The notes beneath the pieces are model-generated. The model saw nothing but the letters and a program-made list of their open reading frames with translations, ran no database searches and had not been told where the DNA came from. Positions 3,962-26,780 of a stretch of 27,638 nt of DNA are shown in pieces. Location of the stretch: positions 1 through 27,638 of the forward strand of contig JAWOHE010000013.1 in assembly GCA_046485285.1 (NCBI GenBank), read 5' to 3'. The first letter of the stretch is position 1. Each line of letters starts with the position of its first letter. A program made the position numbers and the translations under genes. This DNA is from a bacterium. GTDB taxonomy: Bacteria > Hydrothermota > Tepidihabitantia > Tepidihabitantales > Tepidihabitantaceae.

Positions 3962-3977
3962 CGCCCGGCCTTCAAAG

Positions 3978-4003: not shown

Positions 4004-4022
4004 AGGGTGTGCAGGCCTTGCG

Positions 4023-5678: not shown

Positions 5679-5686
5679 CATTCCTC

Positions 5687-6978: not shown

Positions 6979-6990
6979 CTCGCGCCTCCG

Positions 6991-7833: not shown

Positions 7834-7843
7834 CTCGACTCCT

Positions 7844-8500
7844 TTACAGCGCCTGGTCGAGGAGCCAGATTTCCGGCTCCTCGGGCAGCCGGTCGGCGTC
7901 CAACTCCACCTCGGCGGTGCCGGTGCGCGTGAGCCGGGCCTGGTCGGCCAGGAACTCGTCGACCGGCGCGATCTTGAAACCGAGCCTTGAGGTCTTGAAG
8001 TGCATCGGGACGATGACCCGGGCCTCGAGTTGGCGGGCGACCGTGTGGGCGCCGCGGGCGTCGAGCGTGTACACCCCGCCGACCGGGACGAGGATGACGT
8101 CGACCGCCCCGATTGCCGTGGCCAGGTCCGCGCCCAGCGCGTGGCCGAGGTCGCCGCAGTGGCAGACCCTGAGCCCGTCGGCCTCGAACACGTAGATCAC
8201 GTTCGCGCCGCGCTTGGCGCCGTTCTCGCCGTCGTGCCAGGAATGGAAACCCCGGACCGTGAACGCGCCGATGCTGAACTCGCCGGTGCCGTTGACCAGC
8301 CGCGGGTTGCCGGGCAGGGTCGCGAACCCGGCGTGGTCAGGGTGGTCGTGGCTGACCGTCACGCCGTCGGCCGGCTCGGTGATGCGGCCGTAGCCGAGCG
8401 CGCCGTCGTAGCTGCCGGCGACGTACGGGTCGGTCAGCAGCCGGGTGCCGTCAGCCGCGACCAGCAGGAAGGCCGAGTGGCCCAGCCACTTGAGCTTCAT
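7844..8500 (-). CDS. MBL-fold metallo-hydrolase
   Basis: WLGHSAF, DPY, SHDHPDH, HCGDLGH, PVGG, PMH. Confidence 0.92.
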   Translation of the reverse strand: MKLKWLGHSAFLLVAADGTRLLTDPYVAGSYDGALGYGRITEPADGVTVSHDHPDHAGFATLPGNPRLVNGTGEFSIGAFTVRGFHSWHDGENGAKRGANVIYVFEADGLRVCHCGDLGHALGADLATAIGAVDVILVPVGGVYTLDARGAHTVARQLEARVIVPMHFKTSRLGFKIAPVDEFLADQARLTRTGTAEVELDADRLPEEPEIWLLDQAL

Positions 8501-8928: not shown

Positions 8929-9975
8929 TCAGTCGGCCAGCACGAACTTGCCCTGCGCGGTCCCGTCCGACGCGGTCAGCCGCCAGGCGTAGATCCCGGC
9001 CGCCAGCCGGCGACCGGCGGCATCGCGGGGCTCCCAGCGCACGGTCTCGGGACCCCGGGCCGTGCCGGACTCCTCCGCCACCAGCCGCCCGGCGCTCGAA
9101 TACACTGCGAGCTGCCAACGCGAGCCGGGGGCGGCAGTGAACCTGACCTCAGCCCGGTCGCGGACCGGGTTCGGACCGCCGGTCGCGCTGAGCCGGGGCG
9201 CCGGCGTCCGCCGCCCTTCCGCGACGCCGGTGAGTTCGAGCAGCTTGACGATTCCGCCCTGATAGACCGGCCGCGAGGAATCGGACTGCTGGGTGGGATT
9301 CTGGAGGAACACGACGAGGTTGCAGTTGGCCTCGACCCAGTCGCTCTCGATCGTGAACGGCTGATACGCGGTGTCCGCGCCCATCGCCGGGACGGTGACA
9401 CTCGTGCCGGCGATGCCGGTGACGTAGTCGCGGCAGACGTGGTTGTGCCACTGGTCGCCGTTCGGCGCCGGGGAATTGATGCTGTCCTCGGTGATGACGA
9501 CGTACAGATTGGCGTCAATCGGCGCTGAAGTCTCGTTCACCATCTCGATTGCCAACTCGCCCGCACCGGCCCCGGGCAGGTAACTGCCGGTCAGGTTAAT
9601 GCCGACCTCGGCCGGCTCGCCGAGCTTCTGCTGGACCCAGTAGTCCCACGACGAATACTGGTAGCCGCGGTTCTTGCCGTCGATCCAGGCCCACGGCGTC
9701 GCGTAGTACCAGTTGCCGCCCGAGTAGTAGGGCGGCGGGTAGCTGAACCAGCGCTGCCGCGCCTCGGCGCAGTAGAGCGGATAGCCGGAGTTGACGTGCC
9801 ACTCGATGGCCGCGATCTGGCCCGGGTAGTTCGCCTTGATCTGGTCCACCGCCACACTGGCGGCGTTGCAGCTGCCTCAGCCTTCGGAGTAGGCCTCTTC
9901 GATGACCACGACCCGGTCAAAGCCGAAGCCGACAACGACACAGGCAAGCAGGGCAGCGACAATCAGCTTCTGCAC
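8929..9975 (-). CDS. Omp28-related thioredoxin-fold selenoprotein (UGSC) with C-terminal T9SS/FlgD-like domain, 348 aa
   Basis: AGGAGG SD and GTG 9975; signal peptide; RVVVIEEAYSEG-U(TGA 9877-9879)-GSC in frame with the 8929..9855 ORF; IEWH, TPWAWIDG, LYVVITED, HNHVCRD, VVFLQN; C-terminal PNP...AGRLV...AGIY. Confidence 0.88.
9847..9865 (-). promoter_or_regulatory. Putative bacterial SECIS hairpin
   Basis: CGCCGCCA-GUG-UGGCGGUG. The loop follows 19 nt after UGA and begins with G. Confidence 0.7.
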
Positions 9976-10045: not shown

Positions 10046-11443
10046 TCAGCGGCGTGGCCGGGCGCGGAAGGCGTGGAGAAAGACTTCCTTGTTGTAGTTG
10101 AGCCGGTTGAGCGCGAAAGTCCCGAGCACCTGCACCGTCCGGACCACCGTCCGACTGCGCCGCTCCTGGATCCGGGCCAGCAGCGGCAGGCAGGCGAAGC
10201 GGGCGAGCCCGCTGACCAAGAACAGGAGGTGGTAGTTGACGAAGGTCCGGCCGAAGAGCTCGAGCCGGAACCCGGCGAGAGCCTGGGCGATCGCCCCGCC
10301 CGCCAGCGACGCGGCGAAGGTCGCCAGCCCGACGACGACCCCGTAGATCGCGAAGTAGCTCTCCTTGCGCACCGGGTTGTCGCCGAGCGCGAACAGCAGG
10401 TTGACCAGCCCGAGGTTGGCCCCGGTCCAGAACAGGCCGTTGAGCACGCCGTCAATCCAGATCGGCAGCCGGAACGTCGGCGTCGCGATCACCCAGAGCA
10501 GCGGCATCACGCCGACGAACGCAAAGCTGATGACCGCGGCCGGCTTCGGGCCGAAGCGGTCGATGTGCCAGCCCCAGAAGAGCTGGAACAGGATACCGGT
10601 CGTCCCGCCGAGGATGGCGTAGACGCCGACCGAGCTGAATGAGAACTGGAGGTTGGTCAGGAGGTGCGCCATGTAGAACGGCGAGGCGAGCGTGCAGGTC
10701 AGGAACCAGACCCCGAGAAAGACAATCAGCCGGCGGAACTGGCGCTCCTCGACGAGCGGCCCGAGCAGCCGCTCGCGCAGCGGCACGTGCGGCCGCGGCA
10801 CCAGCGGCGGCTCGGGCTGGCGCGCGAGCAGCAGCGCCGACGCGACCCCGAACGCGACCGCGAGCAGGTAGGCGAGCCCGAAGCCGAGGTCCGGGTCGTG
10901 GGTCTTGACCCAGTCCATCGCCCGGCCGGCCAGGACGGTCAGCACCATCCCGATGCCGCCGAGGATGGCGTTGCGCCGGCCGAAGAACCGGCCCCGGCCA
11001 TCCTCGGGCACGAGGTCGCTCATCCACGAATTCCAGGTCGTCCCCGCGAACGCGAGCAGGACGTTATAAGCGAAGACGACGGTGAAGAACAGCCCAAGTC
11101 CCAGCTCGAGCTTCAGCAGTAGGTACGGCACCAGGACGATGAACGCCGCCCGGCCGACCCCGCTCGTCCAGACCGTCAGCCCGCGCCGGGACCCGGCGCG
11201 CCGGACGAGCGACCCGGCCGCGAGCGCGACGACCGAGACCAGCGCCGGTATCGCGGCGAGGAGCCCGATGTGGAACGGCCGGGCGCCGAGGTGGAGCGCC
11301 AGCCCGGTCAAGAACATCCCGCCCGCCAGCACGAGGTGGCTGTTGGCGAACGCGCCCTCGACGATCGAGATCCGAAGGCCGCGCCGAACTTCCGCCGGGC
11401 TCAGCCCGACGGCCCCGGCCGCCGGCCCGGGTTCGCCGCTCAC
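10046..11443 (-). CDS. MFS transporter
   Basis: About 12 hydrophobic segments, WMSDLVP..RGRFFG.RN, WGWHIDRFGPK. GTGA overlap with the lipA stop. Confidence 0.9.
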   Translation of the reverse strand: MSGEPGPAAGAVGLSPAEVRRGLRISIVEGAFANSHLVLAGGMFLTGLALHLGARPFHIGLLAAIPALVSVVALAAGSLVRRAGSRRGLTVWTSGVGRAAFIVLVPYLLLKLELGLGLFFTVVFAYNVLLAFAGTTWNSWMSDLVPEDGRGRFFGRRNAILGGIGMVLTVLAGRAMDWVKTHDPDLGFGLAYLLAVAFGVASALLLARQPEPPLVPRPHVPLRERLLGPLVEERQFRRLIVFLGVWFLTCTLASPFYMAHLLTNLQFSFSSVGVYAILGGTTGILFQLFWGWHIDRFGPKPAAVISFAFVGVMPLLWVIATPTFRLPIWIDGVLNGLFWTGANLGLVNLLFALGDNPVRKESYFAIYGVVVGLATFAASLAGGAIAQALAGFRLELFGRTFVNYHLLFLVSGLARFACLPLLARIQERRSRTVVRTVQVLGTFALNRLNYNKEVFLHAFRARPRR

Positions 11444-12375
11444 CGGCCCGCTCTCCTGCCGCCGGGCGCCAGCAGCGTGTCGGCGAGATAGGAACTCCGG
11501 ACCAGCGGCCCGCAGAACGCCGCCCGGAAGCCGAGCGCCCGCGCCTCATCCTCCCACTCCGCGAACCGCTCCGGCGCGACGTGACGCGCCACCGGCCGGC
11601 AGTGCCGCGCCGGCCGCAGGTACTGGCCGATGGTGACGATGTCACAGCCGGCAGTTCTCAGGTCGCGAAGCGCGTGGGAAACCTCTTCGTCGGTCTCGCC
11701 CAGCCCGGCCATCAACCCGCTCTTCGTCGGGATGCCGGGCGCCAGCCGCTTCGCGGTCGCGAGCACCTCGAGCGAGCGGCGATAGCCCGCCCGCCGGTCG
11801 CGCACCTCCGGGCTCAGCCGCTCGACCGTCTCGAGGTTGTGGCCGAACACCGCCGGTCCGGCCGCGAGCACCTGCCCGATGAGCTCCGCCCGGCCGCAGA
11901 AGTCGGGCGTCAGCACCTCAACCCGGACGCCACCCGTTCCTGTCCCCGCATCCTCGCCGCCGGCTTCCGGGTTCCGCGCCCTGACCTCGGACACGGTCCG
12001 GGCGAACTGCCCGGCACCGAGGTCGTCAAGGTCGTCCCGGTCCACCGAGGTCAGCACGACGTAGCGCAGGTCCAGCTCGGCCACCGCCGCCGCCACCCGG
12101 CCCGGCTCGCTCTCATCGACCGCGCCGCCCGGGTTGACGGTCGCGACCGAGCAGAACCGGCAGTTCCGCGTGCAGACCGCGCCAAGAATCATGAAAGTCG
12201 CGGTCCCCCGGTTCCAGCACTCGGCGAGATTCGGGCACCGGGCCGCACTGCAGACCGTCACGAGCCCGTGGGCCCGGAGCCGGGCGTTGACCCGCTCGAA
12301 CTCCTCGCCCTGCGGCAGGCGGGCGCGCAGCCAACGTGGCTTGCCCGCGCGGTCCGGTTCCGGGGCAGGGTTCAT
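11440..12375 (-). CDS. lipA: Lipoyl synthase
   Basis: KPRWLR, CX4CX5C (CSAARCPNLAEC), CX3CX2C (CTRNCRFC), TSVDRDDL, HNLETV, IGQYLRP, RSSY. Confidence 0.96.
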   Translation of the reverse strand: MNPAPEPDRAGKPRWLRARLPQGEEFERVNARLRAHGLVTVCSAARCPNLAECWNRGTATFMILGAVCTRNCRFCSVATVNPGGAVDESEPGRVAAAVAELDLRYVVLTSVDRDDLDDLGAGQFARTVSEVRARNPEAGGEDAGTGTGGVRVEVLTPDFCGRAELIGQVLAAGPAVFGHNLETVERLSPEVRDRRAGYRRSLEVLATAKRLAPGIPTKSGLMAGLGETDEEVSHALRDLRTAGCDIVTIGQYLRPARHCRPVARHVAPERFAEWEDEARALGFRAAFCGPLVRSSYLADTLLAPGGRRAGR

Positions 12376-12397
12376 CGGCGTGACGGGTTAGGGGCGA

Positions 12398-14005
12398 CTA
12401 GGCGCGAATTCTCAGCCCGGACGGCTTGCAGTTCCAGACGCACTCGAAGCAGCGGATGCACTCTGCCTGGTTCGGGTCCTGGTAGGCCGAGATGTTCATC
12501 GGGCAGACCCGCTGGCAGAGCGTGCAGGAAGTGCACCGGTCGCTCACGACCTCCATCCGCAGCAGGCTCACCTTGTTGAACAGCGCATAGACCGCGCCGA
12601 TCGGGCAGACCAGCCGGCAGAACGGCCGCTTGATGCCGATTGCCGCGACGACCACCAGCAACAGGAATCCGACCTTCACCCAGTACAGCCAGCCGACCAG
12701 CCCGCGCAGGGCATTGACCGGGTCCCAGAGCACGAGCGGAATACCGGCGCCGAGCGTCCCCTGAGGGCAGAGCTTGCAGAACCACGGCTCGATGGTCAGG
12801 TAGGAGGCAAGGCCGGCGACGAGCAGCAGCACGGCGTACTTGGCCGTCGTCGAGGGCAAGCTCACCTTCGCCAGCCGGTCCAGCAGCAGGATGACGAGCC
12901 CGGCCGCGGCCGCCAGCGCGATGCCGAGCCCGAACCCGGACAGCGGTCCGATGGCGAACTCCGCCGGCCCGAGCCAGCCGAGCAGGAACGCGGCCGGCAC
13001 GGCAATCGCGGCCGCGACCCAACCGCCGGAAAGCCCGAGGACGAGAATTCCCGCGAACCCGGCGACGACCCCGAAGCCGGCGCCGAACCTCAGCCACGTC
13101 AGTGCGCCGATGCCGACCGCAACGAGGAAACTGCCCACCCAGAGCCGCCTCGGGACGTCGAACTTGCCTGTCAGCGCAACTGCCAGCAGTGCGCCGGCGA
13201 ACGGCAGCCAGCCGAACAGCAACACCTGCCACCACGCCAGCTTGAGCAGCGCGACGAGCAGGAACCCGGCGACCGCCGCGACGCCGGCGATGACGCCGAA
13301 CGACAGCCACTTCTTCGCCTTTGCCCGGCGCCCGACCGGGACCTTCTGGAGCAGGTCCTGCCACAGCCCGAACGGGCATATCCACGCGCAGGCCGCCCGG
13401 CCGACCAGCGCGCCGACGACGATGAACGCGCCCAGCGCCAGCCACGGGATGGTCCTCATCCCGATCATCTGCTGGGTCGAGCCGATCGGGCAGGCGAACA
13501 CCGCCAGCGGCCCGCCATAGCAGTTGAGTATCGGCTGAGGGATGTGCTTGAAGAAGCCCTGGTAGAGAATCTTGTCCTGCAGGTAGGCAAGGATGTAGGC
13601 GTTGAGAACCACCGCCGAGATGACCTGCACGACCCGGAACGGCGCGACCCGCCGCCTGACGAACAGCGTCACGACCAGCATCAGCGCGATGAACGGCAGG
13701 GTCGCGAAGAGCAGCACCCGGGCCGGCGCGATGCCCTCGAAGAAAGCCAGCCAGGCTGAGACCAGCAGCCCGGCCGCGACAATCGCTCCGAACGCGGGCC
13801 AGCGCCGGCGGTCCTCCGGCCGGCCGGCGTAGAGTGCCGCGAAGAGCTCGACCAGCACCAGCGGCAGCCAGCCGAACGCGAGCACCCGCCACCAGTTGAA
13901 GCCGGCGAACGCTACCAGCGCCGCAATCACCAGCGTCGAAAGCCCGGCGATGACGAAGAACCAGGTCCAGCGGACCCTGCCGCCGGACCGCCGGGCGTCA
14001 GTCAA
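12398..14005 (-). CDS. Polytopic membrane 4Fe-4S binding protein (NapH/MauN/RdxA-like)
   Basis: NCYGGP...CPIG, GRAACAWICPFG, FCKLCPQG, RPFCRLVCPIG, CTSCTLCQRVCP, CIRCFECVWNC; many TM helices; TTG start with GGGAG SD. Confidence 0.9.
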   Translation of the reverse strand: MTDARRSGGRVRWTWFFVIAGLSTLVIAALVAFAGFNWWRVLAFGWLPLVLVELFAALYAGRPEDRRRWPAFGAIVAAGLLVSAWLAFFEGIAPARVLLFATLPFIALMLVVTLFVRRRVAPFRVVQVISAVVLNAYILAYLQDKILYQGFFKHIPQPILNCYGGPLAVFACPIGSTQQMIGMRTIPWLALGAFIVVGALVGRAACAWICPFGLWQDLLQKVPVGRRAKAKKWLSFGVIAGVAAVAGFLLVALLKLAWWQVLLFGWLPFAGALLAVALTGKFDVPRRLWVGSFLVAVGIGALTWLRFGAGFGVVAGFAGILVLGLSGGWVAAAIAVPAAFLLGWLGPAEFAIGPLSGFGLGIALAAAAGLVILLLDRLAKVSLPSTTAKYAVLLLVAGLASYLTIEPWFCKLCPQGTLGAGIPLVLWDPVNALRGLVGWLYWVKVGFLLLVVVAAIGIKRPFCRLVCPIGAVYALFNKVSLLRMEVVSDRCTSCTLCQRVCPMNISAYQDPNQAECIRCFECVWNCKPSGLRIRA

Positions 14006-14020
14006 TCGGTTCGCTCCCAG

Positions 14021-14048
14021 GTGCCGGGGCTACACGAGCCCCATGCAC
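14021..14048 (-). promoter_or_regulatory. Putative bacterial SECIS hairpin spanning the stop codon
   Basis: GUGC-AU-GGGGCU-CGUGU-AGCCCC-G-GCAC. The loop follows 17 nt after UGA. Confidence 0.7.
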
Positions 14049-14167
14049 GACAGTCATATCTGGGCCGCGAAGCGGTGAATCGTCTCCGGGTCGCCCTTGA
14101 CTATTCCGATCACGACCGCGGCGACGCCCGCCAGCGCGACCACCGCGAACAGGACGCGGCGCCTCAC
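14030..14167 (-). CDS. 45-aa single-TM selenoprotein (ULSC), CD1871A-like CxxC-motif family
   Basis: GGGAGGG SD and GTG 14167; MRRRVLFAVVALAGVAAVVIGIVKGDPETIHRFAAQI-U(TGA 14054-14056)-LSCMGLV-TAG. Matches the 'ICLxCIG' terminus of small peptides encoded upstream of such 4Fe-4S proteins. Confidence 0.82.
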
Positions 14168-14214
14168 CTGCGTCCCTCCCCGGCCGTCCGCGTCCACCTG
14201 TGCTTCGTTCATTC

Positions 14215-15690
14215 TCAGAACCTCGAGATGAGCTGGGCCTTCACGCCCCGGAACGGCGCCTCGAACCGGCAGACCCCGCCCGAACAGGTGTAGCCGCCGC
14301 GCTCGGCCCCGACCCGGACCCGGAGCATGTTGCGCTGGGTTATCGACCAGACCGCCTCGAACACCGGCCAGCCCTGCTCGCCGTTGTAGCGCTTGTCGAG
14401 CTTCTCGCTGACGTGCTGGTAGCCGACCGTGAACAGGAGCGCCTCGTCGATGCCGTAGGAGAACGCCGCCGCCAGCTCGCGGTACTTCCAGGTCTCGCCC
14501 TCGGTCGAGCGCTCGTCGACGAACGCTAGCTCACCCTCGAGCGCGAAGCTGTGCCGGCCGACGGCGTGGTTCAGGTGGACCACCGGCTTGTCGGTCGCCC
14601 GGTGGGCGGTGCCGAGCTCGACGTTCTGCTGGACCATGTGGTTGAACGCCAGCTCGAACGTCCAGTCGCTGGTCGGATAGCGCGCCTTGCCCTCCCACTC
14701 GACCACGCCCGCGCTGGTGTTGTCGTGGGTGAACAGCCGGCCGTAGTCGGCCTCGAGGTAGAGCGTCGACCACGGCGTCGTGGTCGCGGTCACCCCGAAC
14801 CCGCGCTCGTCGACCCCGCGGTTCATCGCCACCCCGGACTTTGTCGGCGTCGGCGGGTCGTTCCAGTGGTAGAGCCCGGCCGGGAACCCGATGTTGTCGT
14901 AGTCCATCAACTGGCCGAGCACGCTGAACCCCGGGAACGTCACCGTCCCGCTCGCGTACCAGCCGAGCCCGCTCTCCCGCCCGCCCAGCCCGGCCGCGGT
15001 CCCCAGCCGGCGGCAGACCTCGCCGTACACCTCGACCGGCCCGACCGCCGAGGTCAGGTTGCCGCCGAAGAGCTCGGTGAACGCCCGCGCCTGCGGGTCG
15101 CTCTCGCGGTTGACGCGGACGTAGCGCCCGCCGAACCCACCCCACCGGGCCGGCCGCGACTCGAAATTCGCGCCCAGCACCTGGTCGGAGGTGTCCGCGG
15201 CGTTCACCAACCGGTAGGTGTTCTCCTGGAAGAATATGTCGCGCAGCCGCGCGCCGAGCAGGACCAGCTCGGACCGGAACGGCAGCCGCGCGGTCCCGCG
15301 CAGGCCGTGCAGGCTCTTGTAGTGCCGGAACTCGTCGTCCTTGTAGGCCCGGAGCGCCAAACCCTTGCCGAAATCCTGGTAGAACCGGCCGTAAAGCACC
15401 TCGAGCTGCTTCGGGCTGTAGGCGACGGTGTAGTCAAGCAGGCGGAGCGGCCGACGGGCGTCGCTCCACGGCTTCGACGGCTCGTAGGCGAACAGCCCGA
15501 GGTTGCCGCGTAGGTCGCCGTAGCGCAGGTTCATATCGAGCAGCTCCTCGAGCTGGGTCGAGAACGTCGAGTCGAAAAAAGACCAGAACTCGGCCCGGTT
15601 CACGCCGCTGACCGACAGCTCGGCCGCCCGGGCCGGGCCCAGGACGGCGAGACACGCAACCGCGAACAGGCTGACCCTGACTGCCTTCAT
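14215..15690 (-). CDS. DUF6029-like outer-membrane beta-barrel protein
   Basis: Signal peptide, GRFYQDFGKGLALR, amphipathic strands, C-terminal RGGYTCSGGVCRFEAPFRG...SRF ending in Phe. Confidence 0.82.
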   Translation of the reverse strand: MKAVRVSLFAVACLAVLGPARAAELSVSGVNRAEFWSFFDSTFSTQLEELLDMNLRYGDLRGNLGLFAYEPSKPWSDARRPLRLLDYTVAYSPKQLEVLYGRFYQDFGKGLALRAYKDDEFRHYKSLHGLRGTARLPFRSELVLLGARLRDIFFQENTYRLVNAADTSDQVLGANFESRPARWGGFGGRYVRVNRESDPQARAFTELFGGNLTSAVGPVEVYGEVCRRLGTAAGLGGRESGLGWYASGTVTFPGFSVLGQLMDYDNIGFPAGLYHWNDPPTPTKSGVAMNRGVDERGFGVTATTTPWSTLYLEADYGRLFTHDNTSAGVVEWEGKARYPTSDWTFELAFNHMVQQNVELGTAHRATDKPVVHLNHAVGRHSFALEGELAFVDERSTEGETWKYRELAAAFSYGIDEALLFTVGYQHVSEKLDKRYNGEQGWPVFEAVWSITQRNMLRVRVGAERGGYTCSGGVCRFEAPFRGVKAQLISRF

Positions 15691-15717
15691 CTTCCTTGAG
15701 TCTTCGCGCCGGGGCCG

Positions 15718-16248
15718 CTACTCGCCCGCATCCTCGGGGCTGTCCAGCGGCTCCTCGGGCAGCCATTTCAGGAACTCGGCCCTGATCTTCGCCTCGTCAC
15801 CCTTCTTGTAGCCGATGTGGGTGTAGACGACCTCGCCCTTGGTGTTAATCAGGTACGAAGTCGGCTTGATGATGATGCCGTACGCGCTCTTGACCTCCTG
15901 CTGCGCGTCGAGCAGGCAGACGTACGGCCACCTCTTCGCCGCGACGAACGCCTTGACCTTGGCCCCGTCCGCCGGCTTGTCCACCGACAGCGCGATTATC
16001 TGCAGGCCGTAGGGCGCGAGCTCCTCGTAGATCGGCACCAGCGCGTCGAGCTCGGCGATGCAGTTCACGCACGGCAGGTCCCAGCACTCCATGTAGACCG
16101 GCCCGCGCTTGAGCATCTCGGACAGCGTGTGCTCCTCGCCGTTCACGTCCGTCAGCGTAAAGTCCTGCGCCTTCTCGTACTTCACCTCGGCGGCGAAAAC
16201 CGGCCCGGCCGCCAGCGCTACCACCACTGCCAGTCCCAACAGCTTCAT
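15718..16248 (-). CDS. TlpA/ResA-like periplasmic thiol-disulfide oxidoreductase
   Basis: Signal peptide, DFTLTD.NG, W..PCVNC..E, LSVD, cis-Pro motif KPTSYLIN; GGAGGTG SD. Confidence 0.92.
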   Translation of the reverse strand: MKLLGLAVVVALAAGPVFAAEVKYEKAQDFTLTDVNGEEHTLSEMLKRGPVYMECWDLPCVNCIAELDALVPIYEELAPYGLQIIALSVDKPADGAKVKAFVAAKRWPYVCLLDAQQEVKSAYGIIIKPTSYLINTKGEVVYTHIGYKKGDEAKIRAEFLKWLPEEPLDSPEDAGE

Positions 16249-16261
16249 CGCAACACCTCCG

Positions 16262-17038
16262 TCATTCCCGCGCCAGCTTGCGCGTCACCACTGTCTGCAT
16301 CACCGCCCGGGTCGCCGTGTCCTGGACGAACACCGCCACCCCGAGCCGGTCCTGGCGCCAGCCCCGGTAGGGCGTCGCCAGCACCGTGTCGAGCTCGGTC
16401 GCGTAACGGAGCCGGACCGGCACGCCCCACGGCCCGCCGATGATGTCCGCCGCGATCGGCACGTACGACGTGTCGGTGCTCCCGAACCGCACCCGCGTCA
16501 CACTGTCCTGGAACACCACCGCCACCAGCATCAGCCCGTCGATATCATCTACCAGCGTGTCGAGCGTGGTAATCCGCACGCCGACCCGCAGTTCGCTGCC
16601 GACGATACCGGTCGCCGCGGTGTCGAGCGCCATCTCGAGCATCGTCTTCCGCGACCGGGCGGCATCGACCCGCGACCGGAGCGCGTCGTAGAGCGTCTCC
16701 TGGAACGCGGCGTCGCCGCCGTCGAAATACGTCACCGGCTCGAAGCCCAGCCCGTAGCCGTACCACTGCGCCCGGCGCAGGGCCGTCACGGTCGCCAGCG
16801 TATCGAACAGCGTATCCGAATGATACGTGAAATAGGCCAGCGAATCGCCGAACTCGTACGACAGCCGTTCAAGAGACCGCTCCGCGGCCTCGCAGTAACT
16901 TCAGCCCGCGCTCGAGAACACCTCGCTCAGCACCACCCGGTTCGCGGCCATGGTGATGAGCGGGGCGATCGAACACTGGGCGGTCAGGCCGAAGACCGCG
17001 GCCGCCGCGGCGAGCGAAAACAATCTGCGTCTGGTCAT
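16262..17038 (-). CDS. Omp28-like thioredoxin-fold selenoprotein (USYC), possible lipoprotein, 258 aa
   Basis: The ORFs 16901..17083 and 16262..16789 share a frame and are joined through a single TGA (16901-16903): RVVLSEVFSSAG-U-SYCEAAE...FTYH...EPVTYFDG...VAVVFQD...VAVFVQD. Signal peptide with LTAQC. Confidence 0.85.
16873..16891 (-). promoter_or_regulatory. Putative bacterial SECIS hairpin
   Basis: GAGGCCGC-GGA-GCGGUCUC. The loop follows 17 nt after UGA and begins with G. Confidence 0.7.
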
Positions 17039-17045
17039 TACAGAT

Positions 17046-17074
17046 ATGCTAAAAGACCCGACCGAGTGAGTCAA
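17046..17074 (-). promoter_or_regulatory. sigma70 promoter of the redox operon, leaderless
   Basis: TTGACT-17-TAGCAT, with ATG 17038 seven nt downstream and no SD. Confidence 0.65.
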
Positions 17075-17093
17075 GCCGGGCAAACCCGAACCG

Positions 17094-18617
17094 CTACTCC
17101 GGCCTGACCACTTTCACCCGCTCAACCCGCTCGCCCGAGTCCACCAGGCAGTAGTACACCCCCGGGGGACGGTCGCCGAGCGCAACGCTGACGACGTGCT
17201 GTCCTGGCCCGAGCCGGCCCCGGTACAGCCGCCCGCCGGCCCGCCCCCCGGCGTCGAACAGGGTGATGCTCACGTCCGCGGACGCGGCCAGTCCAAACCG
17301 CAGTATCGCGACCCCGCCGCGACTGACGACCGCCGCCTGCCCGGACCCGGGCCGGGACGGCCGTTGCTCCTCGATCGCCGTGAAGTGGTAGCCGTCAAAC
17401 CAGACTTGGTCGGTATCCAGCTTCGCATATCCAAGGTACCCGCCGCTGGTCAGCCAGGAGTATCCCACCTGCGCGCCGATGCCCAGCACCATCCGGAAGT
17501 CGTTGCGCACACCCCGCCCCTCCCAGACATTCGGTCCGACCGGGCGCGAGTAGGCGTACACCAGCGAGTCGCGGTTGCGGGTCGGCTCGGGCATCGTCGC
17601 CGCGCCGCGGAAGAGGTCGTCGGCGTATCCCCGGCGCACGCGCGGGAGCCTCGCGTCCCAGGTCACCCGCGTCTGGTTCACCGGCGGCCAGAACCCGGTG
17701 GTCCACCCCGCGCCGCCATTCGTCGTCCAGCCCTGGCCGACCCCGACGATGCTGTCGGCAACGCTGCTGCAGTAAAGCACCACCGCCGCCTGCGCCGTGC
17801 GCCCGGCCTCCCGGTCCGCAGCGACCGACGCCGCCCACACCCGCCCGTTGCCGGCCGAGTCGAGCCGGGCGACCGCCGAGTCCGCGCCTGCGAGGTTCTC
17901 GGTGTAGCGTGTGACCTGCACCCACGCCGAGTCCCGGCTGTTGCAGGCGAGGTACACGCAGCCGTCCCCGCCCGCAGCCAGCGCCGGCAACTCGCAGCCG
18001 GTCGCGGCGACCCGGTGGTTGCCCCAGGTCTGGCCCGAGTCGCTCGAGGCGGCGAGGTGTATCTCTCCCGCCTGCGTCTCCCAGGCCGCGAACAGACGCT
18101 GGGGCGACTCGATGTTCAGATCTGCCGCAACCCGCACGACGGTGTCACTGCCCGGCACGTGGATCCATGCCGGGCTGACCATCATCGGCCGGTGCCGCAG
18201 CAGCCAGAGGCCGATGCCCGGTGGGTTGCCGACCAGCAGGTCGTAGAGCCAGGTGCCGTTAGCGTCACTGCCCACCCGGAGCTCGTAGTCCGCGAACGAC
18301 GCGAACGGGTCGTCGGGGGCAATCTCGTAGGCAGTCGTCCAGCTCCAGCCTCCGTCGGTCGATCGCCAGACGTGGACCCGGTCACCCGGGCCGCCGCCCG
18401 GCTCGAGCAGGCCGACGTAGATGGTGCCGGCCGTGTCCGAGTCAGTGACCAGCTTGCCGGTTGTAAGCGCGCGGCCGACCGCGCCGACCAGCACGTCGTC
18501 GCCCCAGTCGCGCATCGTGTCGGCGAGGACCCGGACTTCAGGGGCGTGGCAGTACTCCACCCGCCCGGACGGCACGTGGTAGACAGGGAAAGCGCAGAGC
18601 AGGACCATCAGCAGCAC
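17094..18617 (-). CDS. Secreted BNR/Asp-box beta-propeller protein with T9SS-like C-terminal domain
   Basis: Asp-boxes RSTDGGWSW, SSDSGQTW, TTNGGAGW; C-terminal LFDAGGR...PGVYY...KVV; AGGAGG SD. Confidence 0.8.
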   Translation of the reverse strand: MLLMVLLCAFPVYHVPSGRVEYCHAPEVRVLADTMRDWGDDVLVGAVGRALTTGKLVTDSDTAGTIYVGLLEPGGGPGDRVHVWRSTDGGWSWTTAYEIAPDDPFASFADYELRVGSDANGTWLYDLLVGNPPGIGLWLLRHRPMMVSPAWIHVPGSDTVVRVAADLNIESPQRLFAAWETQAGEIHLAASSDSGQTWGNHRVAATGCELPALAAGGDGCVYLACNSRDSAWVQVTRYTENLAGADSAVARLDSAGNGRVWAASVAADREAGRTAQAAVVLYCSSVADSIVGVGQGWTTNGGAGWTTGFWPPVNQTRVTWDARLPRVRRGYADDLFRGAATMPEPTRNRDSLVYAYSRPVGPNVWEGRGVRNDFRMVLGIGAQVGYSWLTSGGYLGYAKLDTDQVWFDGYHFTAIEEQRPSRPGSGQAAVVSRGGVAILRFGLAASADVSITLFDAGGRAGGRLYRGRLGPGQHVVSVALGDRPPGVYYCLVDSGERVERVKVVRPE

Positions 18618-18626
18618 CGACCCCTC

Positions 18627-21191
18627 CTATTCCAGCTTCACCAGCTTGCACCGGGCCGCACGGCCCGGGGAAGGTTCCGGCTCGGCGAAGTAGACGCCCC
18701 GCGCCGTCTGCCCGCCGAGCTCGTCCGCCCCGTTCCAGGCAACCGCGCCGCTCGCGCCGACCGCCAGCGTTCGCACCAGCCGCCCCGCGCAATCGCGGAT
18801 GGTGACCGCGCCGCCCGGGGCGGCCTCAAACCGGACCTCGCGCCGGAACGGAACCGGCGCCGCGCGCAGGGTCACCGGGCTGGTGCTGGCCGGCTTCGCT
18901 TCGGCCACTCCGCCGTAGGGCGAGAGCACGCCCTTGATGCGGGGAACCCCGGCCGGGTGACTGTTGATGCTGTCCACCAGCCCGGCGTAGACCATCAGCA
19001 TCTCGCCGCCCGGGCTCGCGGCCAACGCCGGCACCGGAACCTGCCGTTCGTCGGCGACGAGCGGGAAGGTGTCGAACACCGTCGTGCTACGTCCGACCCG
19101 CGCGCCCTGGACCAGCCAGGACGAACCTGCCAGCTCGGCCCAGACGAGGTAGTGATGCGCCCCGTTGAAGACAACGTCCGCGTTGTCGTAGTAGTTCGGG
19201 GACTGCCGGACGAATGCCGGCGGCGAGTCGAGCGCAACCCCGGCCGTGTCCACCCGCAGGCAGCAGATGGCATAATCGGCGCCCTGCCGGTACACCCAGG
19301 TGACGAAGTAGTTGTCGCCATCGAAGGTCAGTGCGGGTTTGCGGTCATGCCCGGGCAGGTTGCTGTAGTAGCGTACTGAATCCAGGGCAGTGCCGTCGTG
19401 GGACAAGCGTCTTCCGGCAACCTCGCTTCCGTAGTGCAGACGGGACTCAGTCCACAGAACGAGAAGCCGTGTTCCATCGAATCGTGCTATCGGGTAGTAG
19501 TTCCAAGTCGTCGAGGGGGGGGTTACGTCAAAGCCGCCCGGATGCGTTACCGAGCCGTCCGTGAGCACGAAAGTTCCCCGGATGTTCGACCCACTGCCTG
19601 CTCGCCAGACTACGAACCACGAGTCTCCGGCGACACAGACGCTGGCTTCCAAGCTGCCCCCGGACGACAGTACCAAGTTGACCGTATCCACCACGCGGCC
19701 CAGTGTGTCAACTCTTGTCCCGTGGAGAGCCTGGCTGAGGCTGCGCAAGTCGGACCAGATGACCAGGAATTGCGTCCCGTTGAACGCCACCTGCGGCGAC
19801 TGTTGGTCGCCCGGGACCGAGCAGATGACAAAAGGGACCGGGTCGAGGGCCGCGCCCGCGTGAGATATTCGCATCCCGTAGATGTCGAGCCCGGTCGTCT
19901 GGCCGCGGTAATCGGTCCAGGCGACGAGATACTGCCCGCCGCCGTCGGCAATTGCCGGCTGCAATTGGGCGTAGTAGAGCGGTATCCACAGGTCCAGCAG
20001 GCCGAATCCTTCCGGGTCGAGCACGCTGTCTCGTGTCGACACCCGGGCCGCCCGGATGTCCCCGCAGACCGTTCCATCCGGTATATCCCGCCAGGCCACC
20101 AGCGCGAGCGTGTCCGCCCCGGCAACACAGGGCTGGTCCTGCGTCCCGGCCGCGACGGTGACCGGGACCCCGTCCGGGTTGGCGACACTGCCGTCCGCCC
20201 GCACACGCGCGGCGTAGAGGTCGGGCACGGTCGCGGAGTTGCGCGAATCAACCCAGACCGCCAGCGCGTCGTCGCCGAGCGCGGTCAGCCGCGGCCGCCG
20301 CTGGGGGCCGGGTGCGGCGGCGACGCGGACCGGCGCGCTGTCGAGCACCGCGCCTGCCGGGGACAGCCGCACGCCCCAGATCTCCGAATCGAGCAGGGCG
20401 CTTTCCTCCCAGGCGATGAGCGCGTTCTCACCGAGTCTGACCACCGCCGGCCGTTCCTGGTCGTACCGGTCCGGCCACAGCTCAATGCCGGCGGTGTCGA
20501 GGACCGCCCCGTCCGGTCCCAGCCGCGCGCACCGGACCTGCGGATACTGACCGTTCCGCCAGTCCTCCCACGCGACGACGAAGCCGCTGTCGGTTGCGGC
20601 GACGGCGGGTTGCGCCTGCGCGCGGCCCGCACGGCAGACCGGCACCGCCGGACCGACCGCACCCGACGAATCGAGGATTGCCGCGTAGACGTCGCCGTCC
20701 CCGGACTGCTCCTCCCAGGCCACCAGCCAGCGCCCGTGCCCATAGGCAGCCGCCGGGCTGCGCGAGTCGCCGCTCCCGGCGCGGATGGGGAGTGCCTGCG
20801 GGTCGAGCAGGTTGCCGCCCGCGTCAACCCGCGCGCCGAATATGTCCCAGCGCGTCCCGCTGCGACGGTCCTCCCAGACGACCAGACACGCACCCGCGCC
20901 CCCGGCGACCTGCGGACTGCGCTGGTCCAGCGAGCAGTCCGAAACCACGAACGCGTGGGAGTCGAGCACCTCGCCCGAATGCGCGACCCTTACAGCGAGC
21001 AGATCCCAGTCGGTCCCGGTCCGGGTCTGCCAGGCGACAAGGAAGTTGTCGCCGCAGACCGCCGCGGCGGGCATCTCCTCGATGCTGTCCCCCGGCCACC
21101 AGACCGGGGTGGTGTCGAGGATGAAGCTCTCGGGCACGGGCTGGCCTGCGGCAAGCGCGGCAAGCAGGACGACGGGAACGGCGATGCGCAT
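18627..21191 (-). CDS. Secreted 14-repeat beta-propeller protein with FlgD/T9SS-like C-terminal domain
   Basis: Signal peptide; repeats P.VA.DG..YLVVW.D.R...DIYGARV...G.VLDP; C-terminal AGRLVR...WNG.D...GVYF. Confidence 0.85.
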   Translation of the reverse strand: MRIAVPVVLLAALAAGQPVPESFILDTTPVWWPGDSIEEMPAAAVCGDNFLVAWQTRTGTDWDLLAVRVAHSGEVLDSHAFVVSDCSLDQRSPQVAGGAGACLVVWEDRRSGTRWDIFGARVDAGGNLLDPQALPIRAGSGDSRSPAAAYGHGRWLVAWEEQSGDGDVYAAILDSSGAVGPAVPVCRAGRAQAQPAVAATDSGFVVAWEDWRNGQYPQVRCARLGPDGAVLDTAGIELWPDRYDQERPAVVRLGENALIAWEESALLDSEIWGVRLSPAGAVLDSAPVRVAAAPGPQRRPRLTALGDDALAVWVDSRNSATVPDLYAARVRADGSVANPDGVPVTVAAGTQDQPCVAGADTLALVAWRDIPDGTVCGDIRAARVSTRDSVLDPEGFGLLDLWIPLYYAQLQPAIADGGGQYLVAWTDYRGQTTGLDIYGMRISHAGAALDPVPFVICSVPGDQQSPQVAFNGTQFLVIWSDLRSLSQALHGTRVDTLGRVVDTVNLVLSSGGSLEASVCVAGDSWFVVWRAGSGSNIRGTFVLTDGSVTHPGGFDVTPPSTTWNYYPIARFDGTRLLVLWTESRLHYGSEVAGRRLSHDGTALDSVRYYSNLPGHDRKPALTFDGDNYFVTWVYRQGADYAICCLRVDTAGVALDSPPAFVRQSPNYYDNADVVFNGAHHYLVWAELAGSSWLVQGARVGRSTTVFDTFPLVADERQVPVPALAASPGGEMLMVYAGLVDSINSHPAGVPRIKGVLSPYGGVAEAKPASTSPVTLRAAPVPFRREVRFEAAPGGAVTIRDCAGRLVRTLAVGASGAVAWNGADELGGQTARGVYFAEPEPSPGRAARCKLVKLE

Positions 21192-21194
21192 CGC

Positions 21195-24143
21195 TCAGTC
21201 CAGCAGGACGGACTTCCGTTCAGCGAGGCCGCCCGCGGCGTCGGTCAGCCGGACGAAGTAGACCCCGGCCGCGACCGGTCGGCCGGACGCGTCGCGCCAG
21301 TCCCAGCCCGGCCCTCCCCCGGCGCCGGGCTCGACGACGGCGACCCGGCGCCCGTCGGTCCCGAACACCTCGAGCCTGAGCAGTCCCGGCCCGCCCGAGC
21401 CGGCGCACGTCAGCGCTTGCCCGCGCCGCAGGACGCTCGCCCCGGCCAGCACCGGCAAGCCGCCGGGCGGTCCTTCCTCGAGACCGGTCGGTAGGTACGC
21501 GAACTGCCAGGCAACGCTGAAACGGCTCCACAGCGAGTCGTCGAAGACACGACACGTCCAGCGATGAGTCGCGCCCGGGACGATGACATCGTCGGGCACG
21601 GTACAGCGGGGCGCTTCTGAGCAGTACCGCCAGAGCGTATCCCCGCCGAGCATTACCCGGAAGTCGAAGCTGTCGAGCGCGGGCCTGAGTGAGTCAACCA
21701 ACAGGACTACCGGCAGTTCCGGGATGGAGTGGTTGTGAGGCGGCCAGACGAGCCCTGGCGGCGCCGGTCGACCGTCGTCGTGCAAGAGCCGTCCCCAGAT
21801 GCGGTTCCGCCCGCACGGGCGGTGATTCACGGAGTCGGCCCGGGCCGAGTAGACTGCCATGAAACGGGACGAGCCCCCCGAACAGACTCCCGGGTTCGCC
21901 GTAACATCATCGGCTTCGGCAATGCCCAGGCTTTCGACTGCGCCACTCACAGGGTCGTACCACACCCCTTTCAGAAGCCTTCCTTCAGGCCAGACGGCGA
22001 GATACCTCGGGCTTCCGTAGGCGACTGCGGGCTCGGGCTTTGCGGGCGACCCGCTGGCGGACAGTATCATCGCGTCTCCGACTCCTCCCTCGCGGGAAAC
22101 CGGGACGCCGTAAATGGCGGCCAGCGAAGTCTGTTCGAAGACCACCAGGAAATCCCGTCCGTCGCTGGCGACCGCCGGAGGACCCTCATAGAAGTGCGCC
22201 GGAGTCAGGTCCAGTCCCTCAGGATCCGGGTAGGTCCTGTCCGGGGCGATGCGCCCTGCGTAGATCTCGTTCGCGTATCCCGAGTTCCACCGCTGGTCGA
22301 TCCAGGTCAAGAGGCCCAGTCCGGAGTCGGCATAGACGATGTCGGGCTTGTAGCCCTCGCCGCTGATGCCAACTCCCCTGCGGTGGATCGCCCCGCCCTG
22401 AGCGACCCAGGCGGCATCGAGGTGCCTCAGGTTGCCCCCGGTCTCACGGTACCAGGCAACGTAGAAGTATGTCCCATCGAATGCGACCGCCGGACCGTGC
22501 TCTCCCACCGACGTGCCGGGAGAGAGCCAGATACCGTTCCCGTCAAGCACGTCGCCATCCCTGGTGACCCGCGTGCCGAAGATCTCGCTGCCATAGCCAC
22601 CGGAAACGCGCAGGTCTCTCCACACGACGAGGTAGCAACTGTCTCCCCAGGCGACATCAGCGTATCCCTGCTCCGCAGCCGCCGCGCTGATGAGCAACGG
22701 CACGGAATCGAGCAAGCCTCCGGAACCGGAGACGCGCATGCCCCGGATGTCCTCGCCGGTGCCGACATCACGGTCCTCCTGCCACACCACAAGGTAGTTC
22801 TCTCCATCAAACGCAAGCGACGGCCGTGACTGGTTCGCGAACTTCGGCACGAGGGCCTGCGTGTCCGGCACCGGGAATGCGCTGTCGAGCACGGTTCCGT
22901 CCGGGCTGATGCGGGTCGCGAAGACGTCGGCGTCGTTCGGCCAGCGGAAATCGAGCCAGACGAGAAGCCAGTTGCCCGCGCCGGCGGCGACTGCCGGGTT
23001 GGACTCTGTCTGAGGCTTGCGCGTCCAGGCTGACCCGCCCGGGTCGAGAACGACCCCGCTCGGGGTCACCCGCGCGCCATAGATGTCCGGGTTGCCGTCG
23101 CGCCAGTCCTGCCACGTGACTGCGTAGTTCGCCCCGTCGAACGCCACCGCCGGGTTCTCCTGCGCGTGGCTGTACGTGCAGACCGCAATGGGACGCCGGT
23201 CGAGCACTACGCCATCCGGGCTCACCCGCGCCGCGAGTATATCTGCCAGCGCGCCCTCGCCGGCCCGCCAGACAGCGAGGAAGTTCTCTCCATTGGTTGC
23301 CACGACGGGAACCCGGGCGTCACCACCCTCGCCGGCGATGATGATTGGCATCGTATCCAGCGGCACCCCCGCGCTGTCAAGCACGGTGCCAAGTATGTCC
23401 CACTGCCCGGTCCATTTGCTCTCCCACGCAACCAGGCTGCCGTTCGGCAGTGCCGCAACCGCCGCAAGCTGGTTTGCGTGCAGCAGGGAGAGCCCGTGGT
23501 GTATGCGCAGGCCATTGGGGTAGCGGACCTGTCCCGTGGTGGAGACCGGTGTTGCCCGGATGTCCCAGCGACGACCATCAGGCGAGGCATTCCACGCGAC
23601 GATGAACTTGGTGCCGTCGTAGGCTACCGCCGGGTTGTAGTGCCGCTGGAGGTCATCGGCTATAACTATCCCCCCGGGGTTGACTCTGCCGTTGGCCGAT
23701 ACAAGCGCGCCTCCAATCTTCGGAACGTAGTTCGTTGCATACCCCCAGAGAACGAGGTAACTGGTATCGCCCCAGGCCACCGCGCATCGTGCGGCTCCGG
23801 ACTGGGTAAATGTCCTGATGATGACCCCACCGGGGTCCAGAAGTTGGCCCGTGGCGGAAACCCGCGCGCAGTACACCCGGTTGTCCGGGTAGAGGGCCTG
23901 CTTCCAGACCACCAGGTAGTCCGTGCCGTTCGAGGCCACCGCCGGAGTGAGTACCGGATCCGCGGTTCTGGTCAGGCCAATCGGTACAGTGTCCAGCATG
24001 AACCCGACCGTGTCCTGCACAAAGGCCTGCGGCGACTCGCCCCGGGTGCTGTTGACCTGCTCGACAATGGCGTGCGGGTCGAACGGCAACTCACCTGAAA
24101 CTGCGGCCGCCAGCGTGCAGACCAGCGAGAAGAGCGTTCGCAT
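21195..24143 (-). CDS. Secreted 14-repeat beta-propeller protein with extra Ig/Fn3-like domain and FlgD/T9SS-like C-terminal domain
   Basis: Same repeat as its neighbours; extra PAPPGLVWP...WSRFSVAWQF segment; C-terminal DGRRV...WDWRD.SG..VAAGVYFVRL. Confidence 0.85.
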   Translation of the reverse strand: MRTLFSLVCTLAAAVSGELPFDPHAIVEQVNSTRGESPQAFVQDTVGFMLDTVPIGLTRTADPVLTPAVASNGTDYLVVWKQALYPDNRVYCARVSATGQLLDPGGVIIRTFTQSGAARCAVAWGDTSYLVLWGYATNYVPKIGGALVSANGRVNPGGIVIADDLQRHYNPAVAYDGTKFIVAWNASPDGRRWDIRATPVSTTGQVRYPNGLRIHHGLSLLHANQLAAVAALPNGSLVAWESKWTGQWDILGTVLDSAGVPLDTMPIIIAGEGGDARVPVVATNGENFLAVWRAGEGALADILAARVSPDGVVLDRRPIAVCTYSHAQENPAVAFDGANYAVTWQDWRDGNPDIYGARVTPSGVVLDPGGSAWTRKPQTESNPAVAAGAGNWLLVWLDFRWPNDADVFATRISPDGTVLDSAFPVPDTQALVPKFANQSRPSLAFDGENYLVVWQEDRDVGTGEDIRGMRVSGSGGLLDSVPLLISAAAAEQGYADVAWGDSCYLVVWRDLRVSGGYGSEIFGTRVTRDGDVLDGNGIWLSPGTSVGEHGPAVAFDGTYFYVAWYRETGGNLRHLDAAWVAQGGAIHRRGVGISGEGYKPDIVYADSGLGLLTWIDQRWNSGYANEIYAGRIAPDRTYPDPEGLDLTPAHFYEGPPAVASDGRDFLVVFEQTSLAAIYGVPVSREGGVGDAMILSASGSPAKPEPAVAYGSPRYLAVWPEGRLLKGVWYDPVSGAVESLGIAEADDVTANPGVCSGGSSRFMAVYSARADSVNHRPCGRNRIWGRLLHDDGRPAPPGLVWPPHNHSIPELPVVLLVDSLRPALDSFDFRVMLGGDTLWRYCSEAPRCTVPDDVIVPGATHRWTCRVFDDSLWSRFSVAWQFAYLPTGLEEGPPGGLPVLAGASVLRRGQALTCAGSGGPGLLRLEVFGTDGRRVAVVEPGAGGGPGWDWRDASGRPVAAGVYFVRLTDAAGGLAERKSVLLD

Positions 24144-24146
24144 CGC

Positions 24147-26747: not shown

Positions 26748-26751
26748 GGCT

Positions 26752-26780
26752 AGTGTAGTCCGGGGCGTTCCCCGTGTCAA
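26752..26780 (-). promoter_or_regulatory. sigma70 promoter of the propeller gene array
   Basis: TTGACA-17-TACACT. Confidence 0.7.

Follow-up and report, generated by a model that had tools for sequence, protein, structure and literature searches.

A gene on the minus strand at positions 16265–17038 of a 27,638-nucleotide stretch of genomic DNA (contig JAWOHE010000013.1, hereafter referred to as the window) from a bacterium of the family Tepidihabitantaceae almost certainly encodes a genuine selenoprotein. Taken as a whole, the analyses described below suggest that its product is probably a selenocysteine (Sec, U)-decoded and likely lipid-anchored oxidoreductase with the fold of HBP35, and that the gene heads a conserved cluster of envelope genes. 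In the open reading frames (ORFs) called for the window under translation table 11, the gene is represented by two minus-strand ORFs that share one frame, 16901–17083, which ends at a TGA codon (16901–16903), and 16262–16789. When the frame was read from the ATG at 17038 with TGA as U, it yielded 258 residues with a single internal TGA at codon 46 and a terminal TGA stop at 16262–16264. The 37 codons joining the two ORFs (16790–16900) are free of stops, which bears out an earlier interpretation of this DNA (the sequence-only reading) that the two fragments join through one TGA into a protein of 258 amino acids. The coding sequence was corroborated by a six-frame search and by alignment with its relatives. 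U46 occupies the first position of U-S-Y-C within the motif S-A-G-U-S-Y-C, and C49 (16892–16894) is the cysteine of this motif.

The genome assembly, which comprises 102 contigs and is 88% complete, contains the complete machinery for Sec decoding. A gene for tRNA-Sec was found with a score of 73.2 bits (gathering threshold 47) and was classified by ARAGORN as tRNA-SeC with the anticodon TCA, and selB (357.5 bits), selA (537.7 bits), and selD (334.8 bits) each scored above the curated cut-off. The selD gene adjoins selB and has one in-frame TGA of its own. A reassignment of TGA to a standard amino acid in the host, for example Trp or Gly, would also account for the open frame, which is the single point in its favor, but the same gene and many of its orthologs terminate with TGA, the genome possesses the full Sec machinery, and paralogs carry Cys at the aligned residue; this explanation is thus extremely improbable.

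The distribution of the codon among related loci was established by a six-frame search of 61 genomes (that of the host and those of relatives). Matches were obtained in 57 of these genomes, and the 23 best rows, which start at query residues 1–22, each contained exactly one TGA. Thirty loci (L018–L047) were inspected individually and consisted of 25 Sec forms including that of the window, four Cys-form paralogs, and one C-terminal fragment (L045). The TGA is located in the same column in all 25 orthologous loci, and all four paralog loci have Cys at this position, an agreement well beyond chance. For the protein alignment, 21 Sec and four Cys forms were used; it omits L045, a locus at a contig end (L022), two near-duplicates (L031 and L036), and L046, which aligns in two frames. 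Residues invariant among the 25 aligned sequences occur on both sides of the TGA, namely C22, S23, A25, P26, R34, and E39 before it and C49, A52, L59, D65, S66, R89, Y93, P101, F105, and G107 after it.

Public protein databases give a different picture of the gene. A word-indexed protein search retrieved 18 proteins, which were the window's own 175-residue ORF and 17 foreign proteins of 155–212 residues, none of which extends upstream of query residue 50. An exhaustive search of representative proteins returned 162 proteins at an E value of 0.001 or better. One database entry of 45 residues corresponds to query residues 1–45 and ends exactly at the TGA, and the full-length relatives of 246–264 residues that were fetched (5 of 5) have Cys at the U position together with a lipobox-type Cys. 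On the face of it, the 17 post-TGA entries and the isolated N-terminal piece could mean that the TGA is a true stop in a pseudogene, a split gene, or an assembly error, and that the functional gene is the 175-residue ORF 16262–16789 or another product starting just after the TGA. The copy at L046, located at positions 1341–2115 of a relative's contig, may also be cited for this explanation: its residues 1–201 and 204–255 align in different frames, which points to a frameshift or to faulty assembly close to the 3′ end. A true stop is nevertheless very improbable, since 25 of 25 loci, which come from different genera, retain the TGA in one alignment column between conserved flanks, the paralogs have Cys there, the predicted thioredoxin fold straddles the codon (strand 1 before and helix 1 after it), a covarying hairpin comes next, and the promoter precedes the upstream ATG and not the downstream ORF. 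The sequence-only reading had named two findings that would speak against it, homologs that begin downstream of the TGA and an N-terminal part that is not conserved. The former is literally what the annotations contain (17 of 17), but the six-frame search indicates that these starts are a gene-calling artefact; contrary to the latter, the 45 N-terminal codons are conserved in every orthologous locus. Public annotation hence splits or truncates the gene everywhere it was found, in the 17 foreign entries as well as in the 45-residue fragment, so that a whole branch of envelope selenoproteins in the candidate division WOR-3 is invisible to protein databases. The assignment to WOR-3 follows the source names given for close homologs of the barrel protein encoded downstream.

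The hairpin behind the UGA resembles a selenocysteine insertion sequence (SECIS) element. It is located at 16873–16891 on the minus strand, starts 12 nucleotides (nt) after the U of the UGA, and has an 8-bp stem and a 3-nt loop (GGA). For its comparison, 72 nt around the TGA from all 25 Sec loci were aligned without gaps, which gave 200 pair cells. Pairing is kept in 98.5% of these cells, and compensatory changes on both sides occur in five of the eight pairs (for example AU in 11 and CG in 11 loci, UG in 12 and GU in 10, CG in 19 and UA in 6). The covariation score of 0.460 compares with 0.166 in shuffled alignments and was reached by none of 500 shuffles; in control registers with the pairing partners slid by 1–3 columns, 28.5–59.5% of the cells were paired. 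RNAalifold independently predicted the identical helix. All eight pairs can form in 23 of the 25 Sec forms, seven in one, and six in one, with GGA, GGC, GGU, or GUU as apical loop, whereas the four Cys paralogs pair at 4–6 of the eight positions in the same register. No match at gathering score to any Rfam family was obtained anywhere in the window; we know of no bacterial SECIS family in Rfam. The UGA at codon 46 would be read as Sec by SelB under the guidance of this downstream hairpin. That the window encodes a second UxxC selenoprotein, related to the one at 8929–9975, as the sequence-only reading had proposed, is supported by the Sec machinery, the Sec/Cys column, and the covarying hairpin together.

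An AlphaFold model built from the 25-row alignment (predicted local distance difference test score, pLDDT, 84.7; predicted template modeling score, pTM, 0.80) shows a signal helix (residues 2–20), a strand (36–42) followed by U46 and a helix (47–66), and a C-terminal half that is entirely beta. Based on this secondary structure, a thioredoxin-fold domain extends over about residues 33–131 (16646–16942) and a beta-sandwich of the Omp28 domain type over about residues 132–258 (16265–16645). Structural matches were obtained by realigning Foldseek candidates with VIA-align. The best of them, HBP35 of P. gingivalis (5y1a), covers the whole mature protein (Z 23.1, root-mean-square deviation 2.7 over 222 residues) at a sequence identity of 12%, followed by the DUF1223 protein Atu2684 (2axo; Z 18.7, 3.3 over 203 residues). 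The Omp28 domain 2r2c_A matches the beta-sandwich (Z 10.0, 2.5 over 113 of 121 residues), and plain thioredoxins match residues 34–129 with Z 7–8. The family profile places U-x-Y-C on the C-P-Y-C of the small thioredoxins 1nho and 1fo5, with U46 on the first Cys, and in the model the UxxC motif is found at the N-terminus of helix 1 after strand 1, as in thioredoxin oxidoreductases. The invariant P101 directly precedes strand 102–105, which makes it a candidate for the cis-proline expected at this position. At the profile level, the protein aligns colinearly with NF033782 (Omp28 family outer membrane lipoprotein), residues 29–250 on positions 33–257 of 264, and one of the Cys paralogs matches the same model with an E value of 1.9e-21. 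Pfam gave a weak match of the window protein to DUF1223 (PF06764) at the motif (E 0.0038, 17.7 bits against a gathering threshold of 30.7); among 25 family members, Pfam Omp28 matches six (best E value 2.1e-12) and DUF1223 ten. In view of these results, it is very likely that the selenoprotein has an HBP35/Omp28-like fold composed of a thioredoxin domain and a beta-sandwich.

Four known groups of proteins can be compared with it. HBP35 shares the two-domain fold over the whole mature protein and has its redox motif where helix 1 of the thioredoxin domain begins, but it possesses CxxC and, at its C-terminus, a type IX secretion domain, whereas the window protein has UxxC and a lipobox-type Cys and ends after the sandwich. 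The recombinant form of HBP35 acts as a thioredoxin provided that both active-site cysteines are present; HBP35 also binds hemin, and growth under hemin limitation requires it (PMC2907840). The Omp28 lipoproteins (NF033782, PF11551, 2r2c) resemble the selenoprotein in the near-full-length profile alignment, the beta-sandwich, and the apparently lipoprotein-type N-terminus, and differ in that the window protein scores below their cut-offs and has Sec in place of the first Cys. The third group, GOS_C, was described in 2008 as 74 Sec and 312 Cys sequences with a thioredoxin-like fold, a conserved UxxC, and unknown function (PMC2398784), and is equated with NF045500 in a table of a selenoproteome review of 2026 (PMC13188914). 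The fold and the conserved UxxC are common to GOS_C and the window protein, but the latter represents a different branch with a probable lipoprotein anchor and its own gene cluster, and only its residues 32–76 align. DUF1223 (PF06764, 2axo), finally, has been classed as thioredoxin-like (PMC3091736). It shares the combination of a thioredoxin fold with a beta-sandwich and the weak profile match at the redox motif with the window protein, which differs by scoring below the gathering cut-off. To our knowledge, neither a Sec form nor a gene cluster of this kind has been described for DUF1223. In a literature search, no paper was found in which "Omp28" occurs together with "selenoprotein," and the main text of the 2026 review, whose supplements may list them, mentions neither NF033782, HBP35, and DUF1223 nor NF040920 and CD1871A, two names that will become relevant below.

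The N-terminus of the protein is consistent with export. Residues 1–21 (16976–17038) form a predicted signal peptide with a basic n-region and a hydrophobic core, in agreement with the model helix, and are followed by the lipobox-type Cys22 (16973–16975), which is invariant in 25 of 25 sequences. In nearly all loci, the start codon is located 18–23 codons before this cysteine. The genome contains lgt (150.1 bits) and lspA (83.5 bits), and the selenoprotein is likely a lipoprotein anchored at Cys22. The stretch C-S-x-A-P following the lipobox Cys (16964–16975, minus strand) is also invariant in 25 of 25 sequences and may be a sorting or recognition signal.

The protein encoded at 8929–9975 (minus strand) is related to the selenoprotein. 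BLASTP aligned residues 27–109 of the latter with residues 14–88 of the 8929–9975 read-through product (24% identity, pairwise E value 2e-7) in a register that places U46 and C49 on U33 and C36. The 8929–9975 protein matches Omp28 (5.7e-15), FlgD_ig, and, weakly, Por_Secre_tail, and it matches NF033782 and NF045500 below their cut-offs; its gene has an 8-bp hairpin beginning 14 nt after its own UGA. No sorting-domain family (Por_Secre_tail or FlgD_ig) was among the Pfam and NCBIfam matches of the window protein, which terminates at residue 258 immediately after the beta-sandwich, so that the absence of a sorting domain noted earlier was confirmed. The presence of sorting-type domains on the 8929–9975 protein only fits the earlier idea that the two paralogs reside in different places.

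Upstream of the selenoprotein gene, a sigma-70-like promoter was identified at 17046–17074 on the minus strand, with TTGACT (17074–17069) and TAGCAT (17051–17046) separated by a 17-nt spacer and the −10 box ending 7 nt before the ATG at 17038. It is the sole promoter-like site within 14000–18800 (one found, 0.2 expected). A promoter scoring 9–11 of 12 and ending 4–13 nt (mostly 6–9) before the first in-frame start was found in each of the 24 Sec loci for which 200 nt upstream could be inspected, whereas L020, of which only 80 nt are available, scored 6, and the best scores at the four Cys-paralog loci were 5–6 of 12. Because the promoter ends so close to the start codon, we infer that the transcript is probably leaderless. 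The gene upstream of the promoter (17094–18617) had no tblastn match in the other 29 loci. Predicted terminators (3 compared with 1.7 expected) were all located inside the DUF6029 frame described below and were regarded as chance occurrences. The claim that the selenoprotein gene heads the operon is upheld by the conserved promoter right before its start codon and by the conserved genes downstream, and the gene is very probably the head of a conserved operon. It had also been suggested that the UGA makes downstream expression dependent on selenium, in that termination at codon 46 under selenium shortage would lower the expression of the following genes. The first position of the gene behind the promoter, the approximately 636 nt left untranslated after codon 46 in such a case, and the presence of rho in the genome are in line with this polarity, but the next gene has a strong GGAGG site of its own, and the effect is considered unlikely.

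This next gene (15718–16248, minus strand) codes for a TlpA/ResA-like exported redoxin with a C-V-N-C motif, and its GGAGG is located at 16256–16260. The redoxin matches AhpC-TSA (1.8e-19) and Redoxin (5.5e-15) and, below the cut-off, the ResA subfamily model (4.3e-19). It is followed at 14215–15690 by a gene for a large outer-membrane beta-barrel of the DUF6029 family (PF19494, 1.5e-17). The redoxin and then DUF6029 follow the selenoprotein gene on the same strand in 24 of the 25 Sec loci, the exception being cut by a contig end, and 20 further, more divergent matches (about 250 residues), which belong to other families within the order and class, are all located in the same cassette, one of them cut before the barrel. 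DUF6029 is present as a single copy in 57 of 201 genomes of the phylum. The protein is highly conserved, and its most invariant stretch (residues 465–480) holds C469 and C474, which are five residues apart and form part of a short hairpin before the last strand in the structural model; at this pair, the outer-membrane barrel may have a disulfide or a redox site. This model (pLDDT 85.6) is large and all-beta, and its best Foldseek matches were usher pores, TonB-dependent barrels, MtrB, and LptD. Barrels of these types usually enclose a plug or a partner. For DUF6029 itself, the portions of the literature consulted mention only a possible role in polysaccharide export, deduced from profile similarity.

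Several observations weigh against the interpretation of the gene as a Sec-decoded, lipid-anchored oxidoreductase of the HBP35 fold at the head of a conserved cluster. When the window RNA was folded alone, the energies were ordinary for a GC-rich sequence (z 0.21 and 0.76), so that the evidence for the hairpin is that from the comparison between genomes; as the hairpin lies within coding sequence and the genomes are related, shared descent could explain part of its covariation. Pfam Omp28 (PF11551) did not match the window protein at an E value of 0.01, and the matches to NF033782 (E 2.1e-6, 27.2 bits) and to NF045500 (Omp28-related selenoprotein; E 0.0096, 15.3 bits, restricted to residues 32–76) fell far below the respective cut-offs of 150 and 200 bits. 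The term Omp28-like, under which the protein had been introduced, is appropriate as far as distant homology and fold are concerned, as documented by the NF033782 alignment and 2r2c, but not with respect to the curated cut-offs of the Omp28 models: the selenoprotein is a distant relative of these families and not a member. Likewise, of the possible lipobox proposed earlier, the invariant Cys22 after a hydrophobic core was recovered, but the residue at position −1, which is Gly or Ser in many relatives, is Gln in the genus of the window and Arg or His in others and is thus not the usual small residue but non-canonical. No terminator was found after the gene upstream of the promoter, so that transcription could read through from there. 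The 20 additional cassette loci had been chosen for carrying one TGA and are a biased sample, from which it does not follow that every such cassette has a Sec form. Conversely, when 13 DUF6029 loci were picked for having no adjacent relative of the selenoprotein, the redoxin was found directly upstream of the barrel in all 13; two had a Cys form approximately 700 nt further up, one another Sec form, and ten had no Omp28-like gene upstream, which indicates that the redoxin-barrel pair works without the selenoprotein in some lineages. The cassette thus has the pair as its core, to which the selenoprotein is often, but not always, added as a third member.

The operon extends beyond what was apparent to the sequence-only reading and includes a second, candidate selenoprotein. 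Two bases after the stop of the barrel gene begins a small ORF of 60 codons (14033–14212, minus strand) for a single-helix membrane protein, in which a TGA at codon 53 (14054–14056) provides the U of a C-terminal U-L-S-C. The protein matches NF040920 (CD1871A family CXXC motif-containing protein) with an E value of 1.1e-5 and 25.1 bits, compared with a cut-off of 32. The position of its TGA is conserved in all 17 loci inspected from its own and sister families. Among three loci of other families, two have Cys instead, and the ORF was not detected in the third. A SECIS-like hairpin with a 6-bp stem and a 5-nt loop (14026–14042) spans the TAG stop of the small gene. Of its 108 cells, 97.2% are paired, one pair being UA in 7, GC in 6, and CG in 5 cases; its covariation score is 0.374 compared with 0.166 (0 of 500 shuffles), and slid controls are 26–62% paired. 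The ORF 14033–14212 is thus likely to be an unlisted small selenoprotein and is regarded as a candidate. No paper on CD1871A or NF040920 was found in a literature search. Several relatives possess the small gene a second time, in Sec or Cys form, beside the cluster of the Cys paralog, which ties the small protein twice to the thioredoxin-fold family.

The small gene is followed in 17 of 17 loci of the same and the sister family, and in three of three loci of other families, by a gene for a polytopic 4Fe-4S membrane protein resembling NapH/MauN (12398–14005, minus strand, start codon uncertain; TIGR02163 3.3e-13, below the cut-off; Fer4_5 1.2e-11). An alternative, overlapping frame at 12372–13892 gave no family match and was rejected in favor of this conserved gene. 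Next after the NapH-like gene, a LipA-like radical S-adenosylmethionine protein (Radical_SAM 2.6e-18, LIAS_N 5.2e-6) is encoded at 11440–12375 on the minus strand; this order is retained in 17 of 17 loci. A related arrangement was observed on the contig of a relative (L106, minus strand, 1–5317), where genes for a 628-residue protein, a Cys-form lipoprotein, a small U-I-P-C membrane protein, a yedF-like product, and selD follow each other. The 628-residue protein has an N-terminal thioredoxin/Omp28-like part with CxxC and a sorting-type C-terminus, and selD has an in-frame TGA; the names yedF, selD, and sorting domain were assigned by eye in this case. The idea that paralogs of about 600 residues represent fusions of thioredoxin and NapH-like parts, and thereby a Rosetta stone, was abandoned as no NapH-like part could be seen by eye in the 628-residue ORF.

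Elsewhere in the window, four large genes in a row (17094–26915, minus strand) encode proteins of 507, 854, 982, and 922 residues with either no Pfam family or a weak C-terminal FlgD_ig match, and they probably represent secreted cargo. The region 4023–8500 (minus strand) holds ordinary metabolic genes, which code for an FAD-binding oxidoreductase, two subunits of fumarate hydratase, and a protein with a metallo-beta-lactamase fold.

Two UxxC selenoproteins, a TlpA-like CxxC protein, an Fe-S membrane protein, and a barrel with a Cys pair are kept together behind one conserved promoter. There is an even chance that this cluster constitutes an envelope redox relay, in which the selenoprotein would act as the distal thiol/selenol-disulfide oxidoreductase. 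The point of entry for electrons may be the NapH-like protein together with the small U-x-x-C helix protein, whose basic N-terminus would leave the U-x-x-C motif facing the periplasm. The electrons would then pass to the TlpA-like protein, which would keep the selenoprotein reduced, and from there to the lipoprotein. The latter may act at or with the barrel, the invariant cysteines of which are candidate substrates, or on surface proteins. The gene itself, its Sec decoding signals, the fold, the conserved promoter, and the gene order are established by the data, whereas the lipid anchor, the location of the protein, its substrate, and the direction in which electrons flow are what we infer. 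The established pathways from DsbD/CcdA to TlpA/ResA are similar in that a TlpA-like CxxC protein is fixed beside a second thioredoxin-fold protein and a candidate for the electron input at the membrane is present in the cluster. They differ in the membrane partners, which here are the NapH-like Fe-S protein and the small U/CxxC helix protein, and in the terminal protein, which here is probably lipid-anchored and paired with an outer-membrane barrel. A gene for a DsbD-type membrane protein is present in the genome on another contig, and classical electron input is thus also possible.

Two other functions were considered for the selenoprotein. Rather than forming the reduced end of a relay, it could be an oxidant or isomerase comparable to DsbA or DsbC and introduce or rearrange disulfides in secreted proteins or those of the outer membrane. 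DsbA-like proteins with UxxC appear in a list of known selenoproteins (Table 2 in PMC2398784), the barrel has an invariant Cys pair, and many secreted proteins that carry sorting-type domains at the C-terminus are encoded in the window. Such a role appears unlikely, however, as the fixed partner is of the TlpA/ResA type and no DsbB-like partner was seen, although no search was aimed at one. Members of the TlpA/ResA family act as reductants. Alternatively, the protein could be a ligand receptor for hemin or a metal that works with the DUF6029 barrel in uptake, in which case U-x-x-C would bind or reduce the ligand and not take part in disulfide exchange with proteins. Among solved structures, the closest is that of a hemin-binding protein (PMC2907840), and the barrel model is most similar to large transport barrels that hold a plug or partner. 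Here, the low identity of 12% to HBP35 means that ligand sites are not transferable, a Pfam scan gave no plug domain or TonB-related family for the barrel, and the conserved neighbors are thiol-redox and Fe-S proteins, which makes a receptor still a little less likely than an oxidant or isomerase.

A more far-reaching version of the proposed redox relay, which is put forward tentatively and is doubtful in the present state, regards the entire cluster from 17074 to about 11440 as an envelope-spanning selenol/thiol conduit that works without DsbD and unites two selenoproteins in a single relay. Electrons would be conveyed across the inner membrane by the NapH-like protein and the single-helix U-x-x-C protein and through the periplasm by the TlpA-like protein, and the U-x-x-C lipoprotein, docked to or inside the DUF6029 barrel, would deliver them to the outer membrane or the cell surface. 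If true, this would explain how the surface thioredoxin-fold proteins of this lineage stay reduced.

Omp28-related selenoproteins have been known since 2008 (GOS_C), and the kind of system is thus not new. What sets the present case apart is a branch of probable lipoproteins that is captured by neither curated model and is truncated in all database entries found, a conserved promoter from which a leaderless transcript is expected, and a tiny second candidate membrane selenoprotein that is encoded in the same cluster together with a NapH-like protein. Through this gene, a UxxC thioredoxin-fold protein, probably a lipoprotein, is connected with fixed partners, the TlpA-like redoxin and the DUF6029 barrel, and DUF6029, the GOS_C-like proteins, and the small CXXC proteins of the CD1871A type acquire a shared context. 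The cluster amounts to a concrete proposal for how reducing power may reach the outer membrane in these bacteria.

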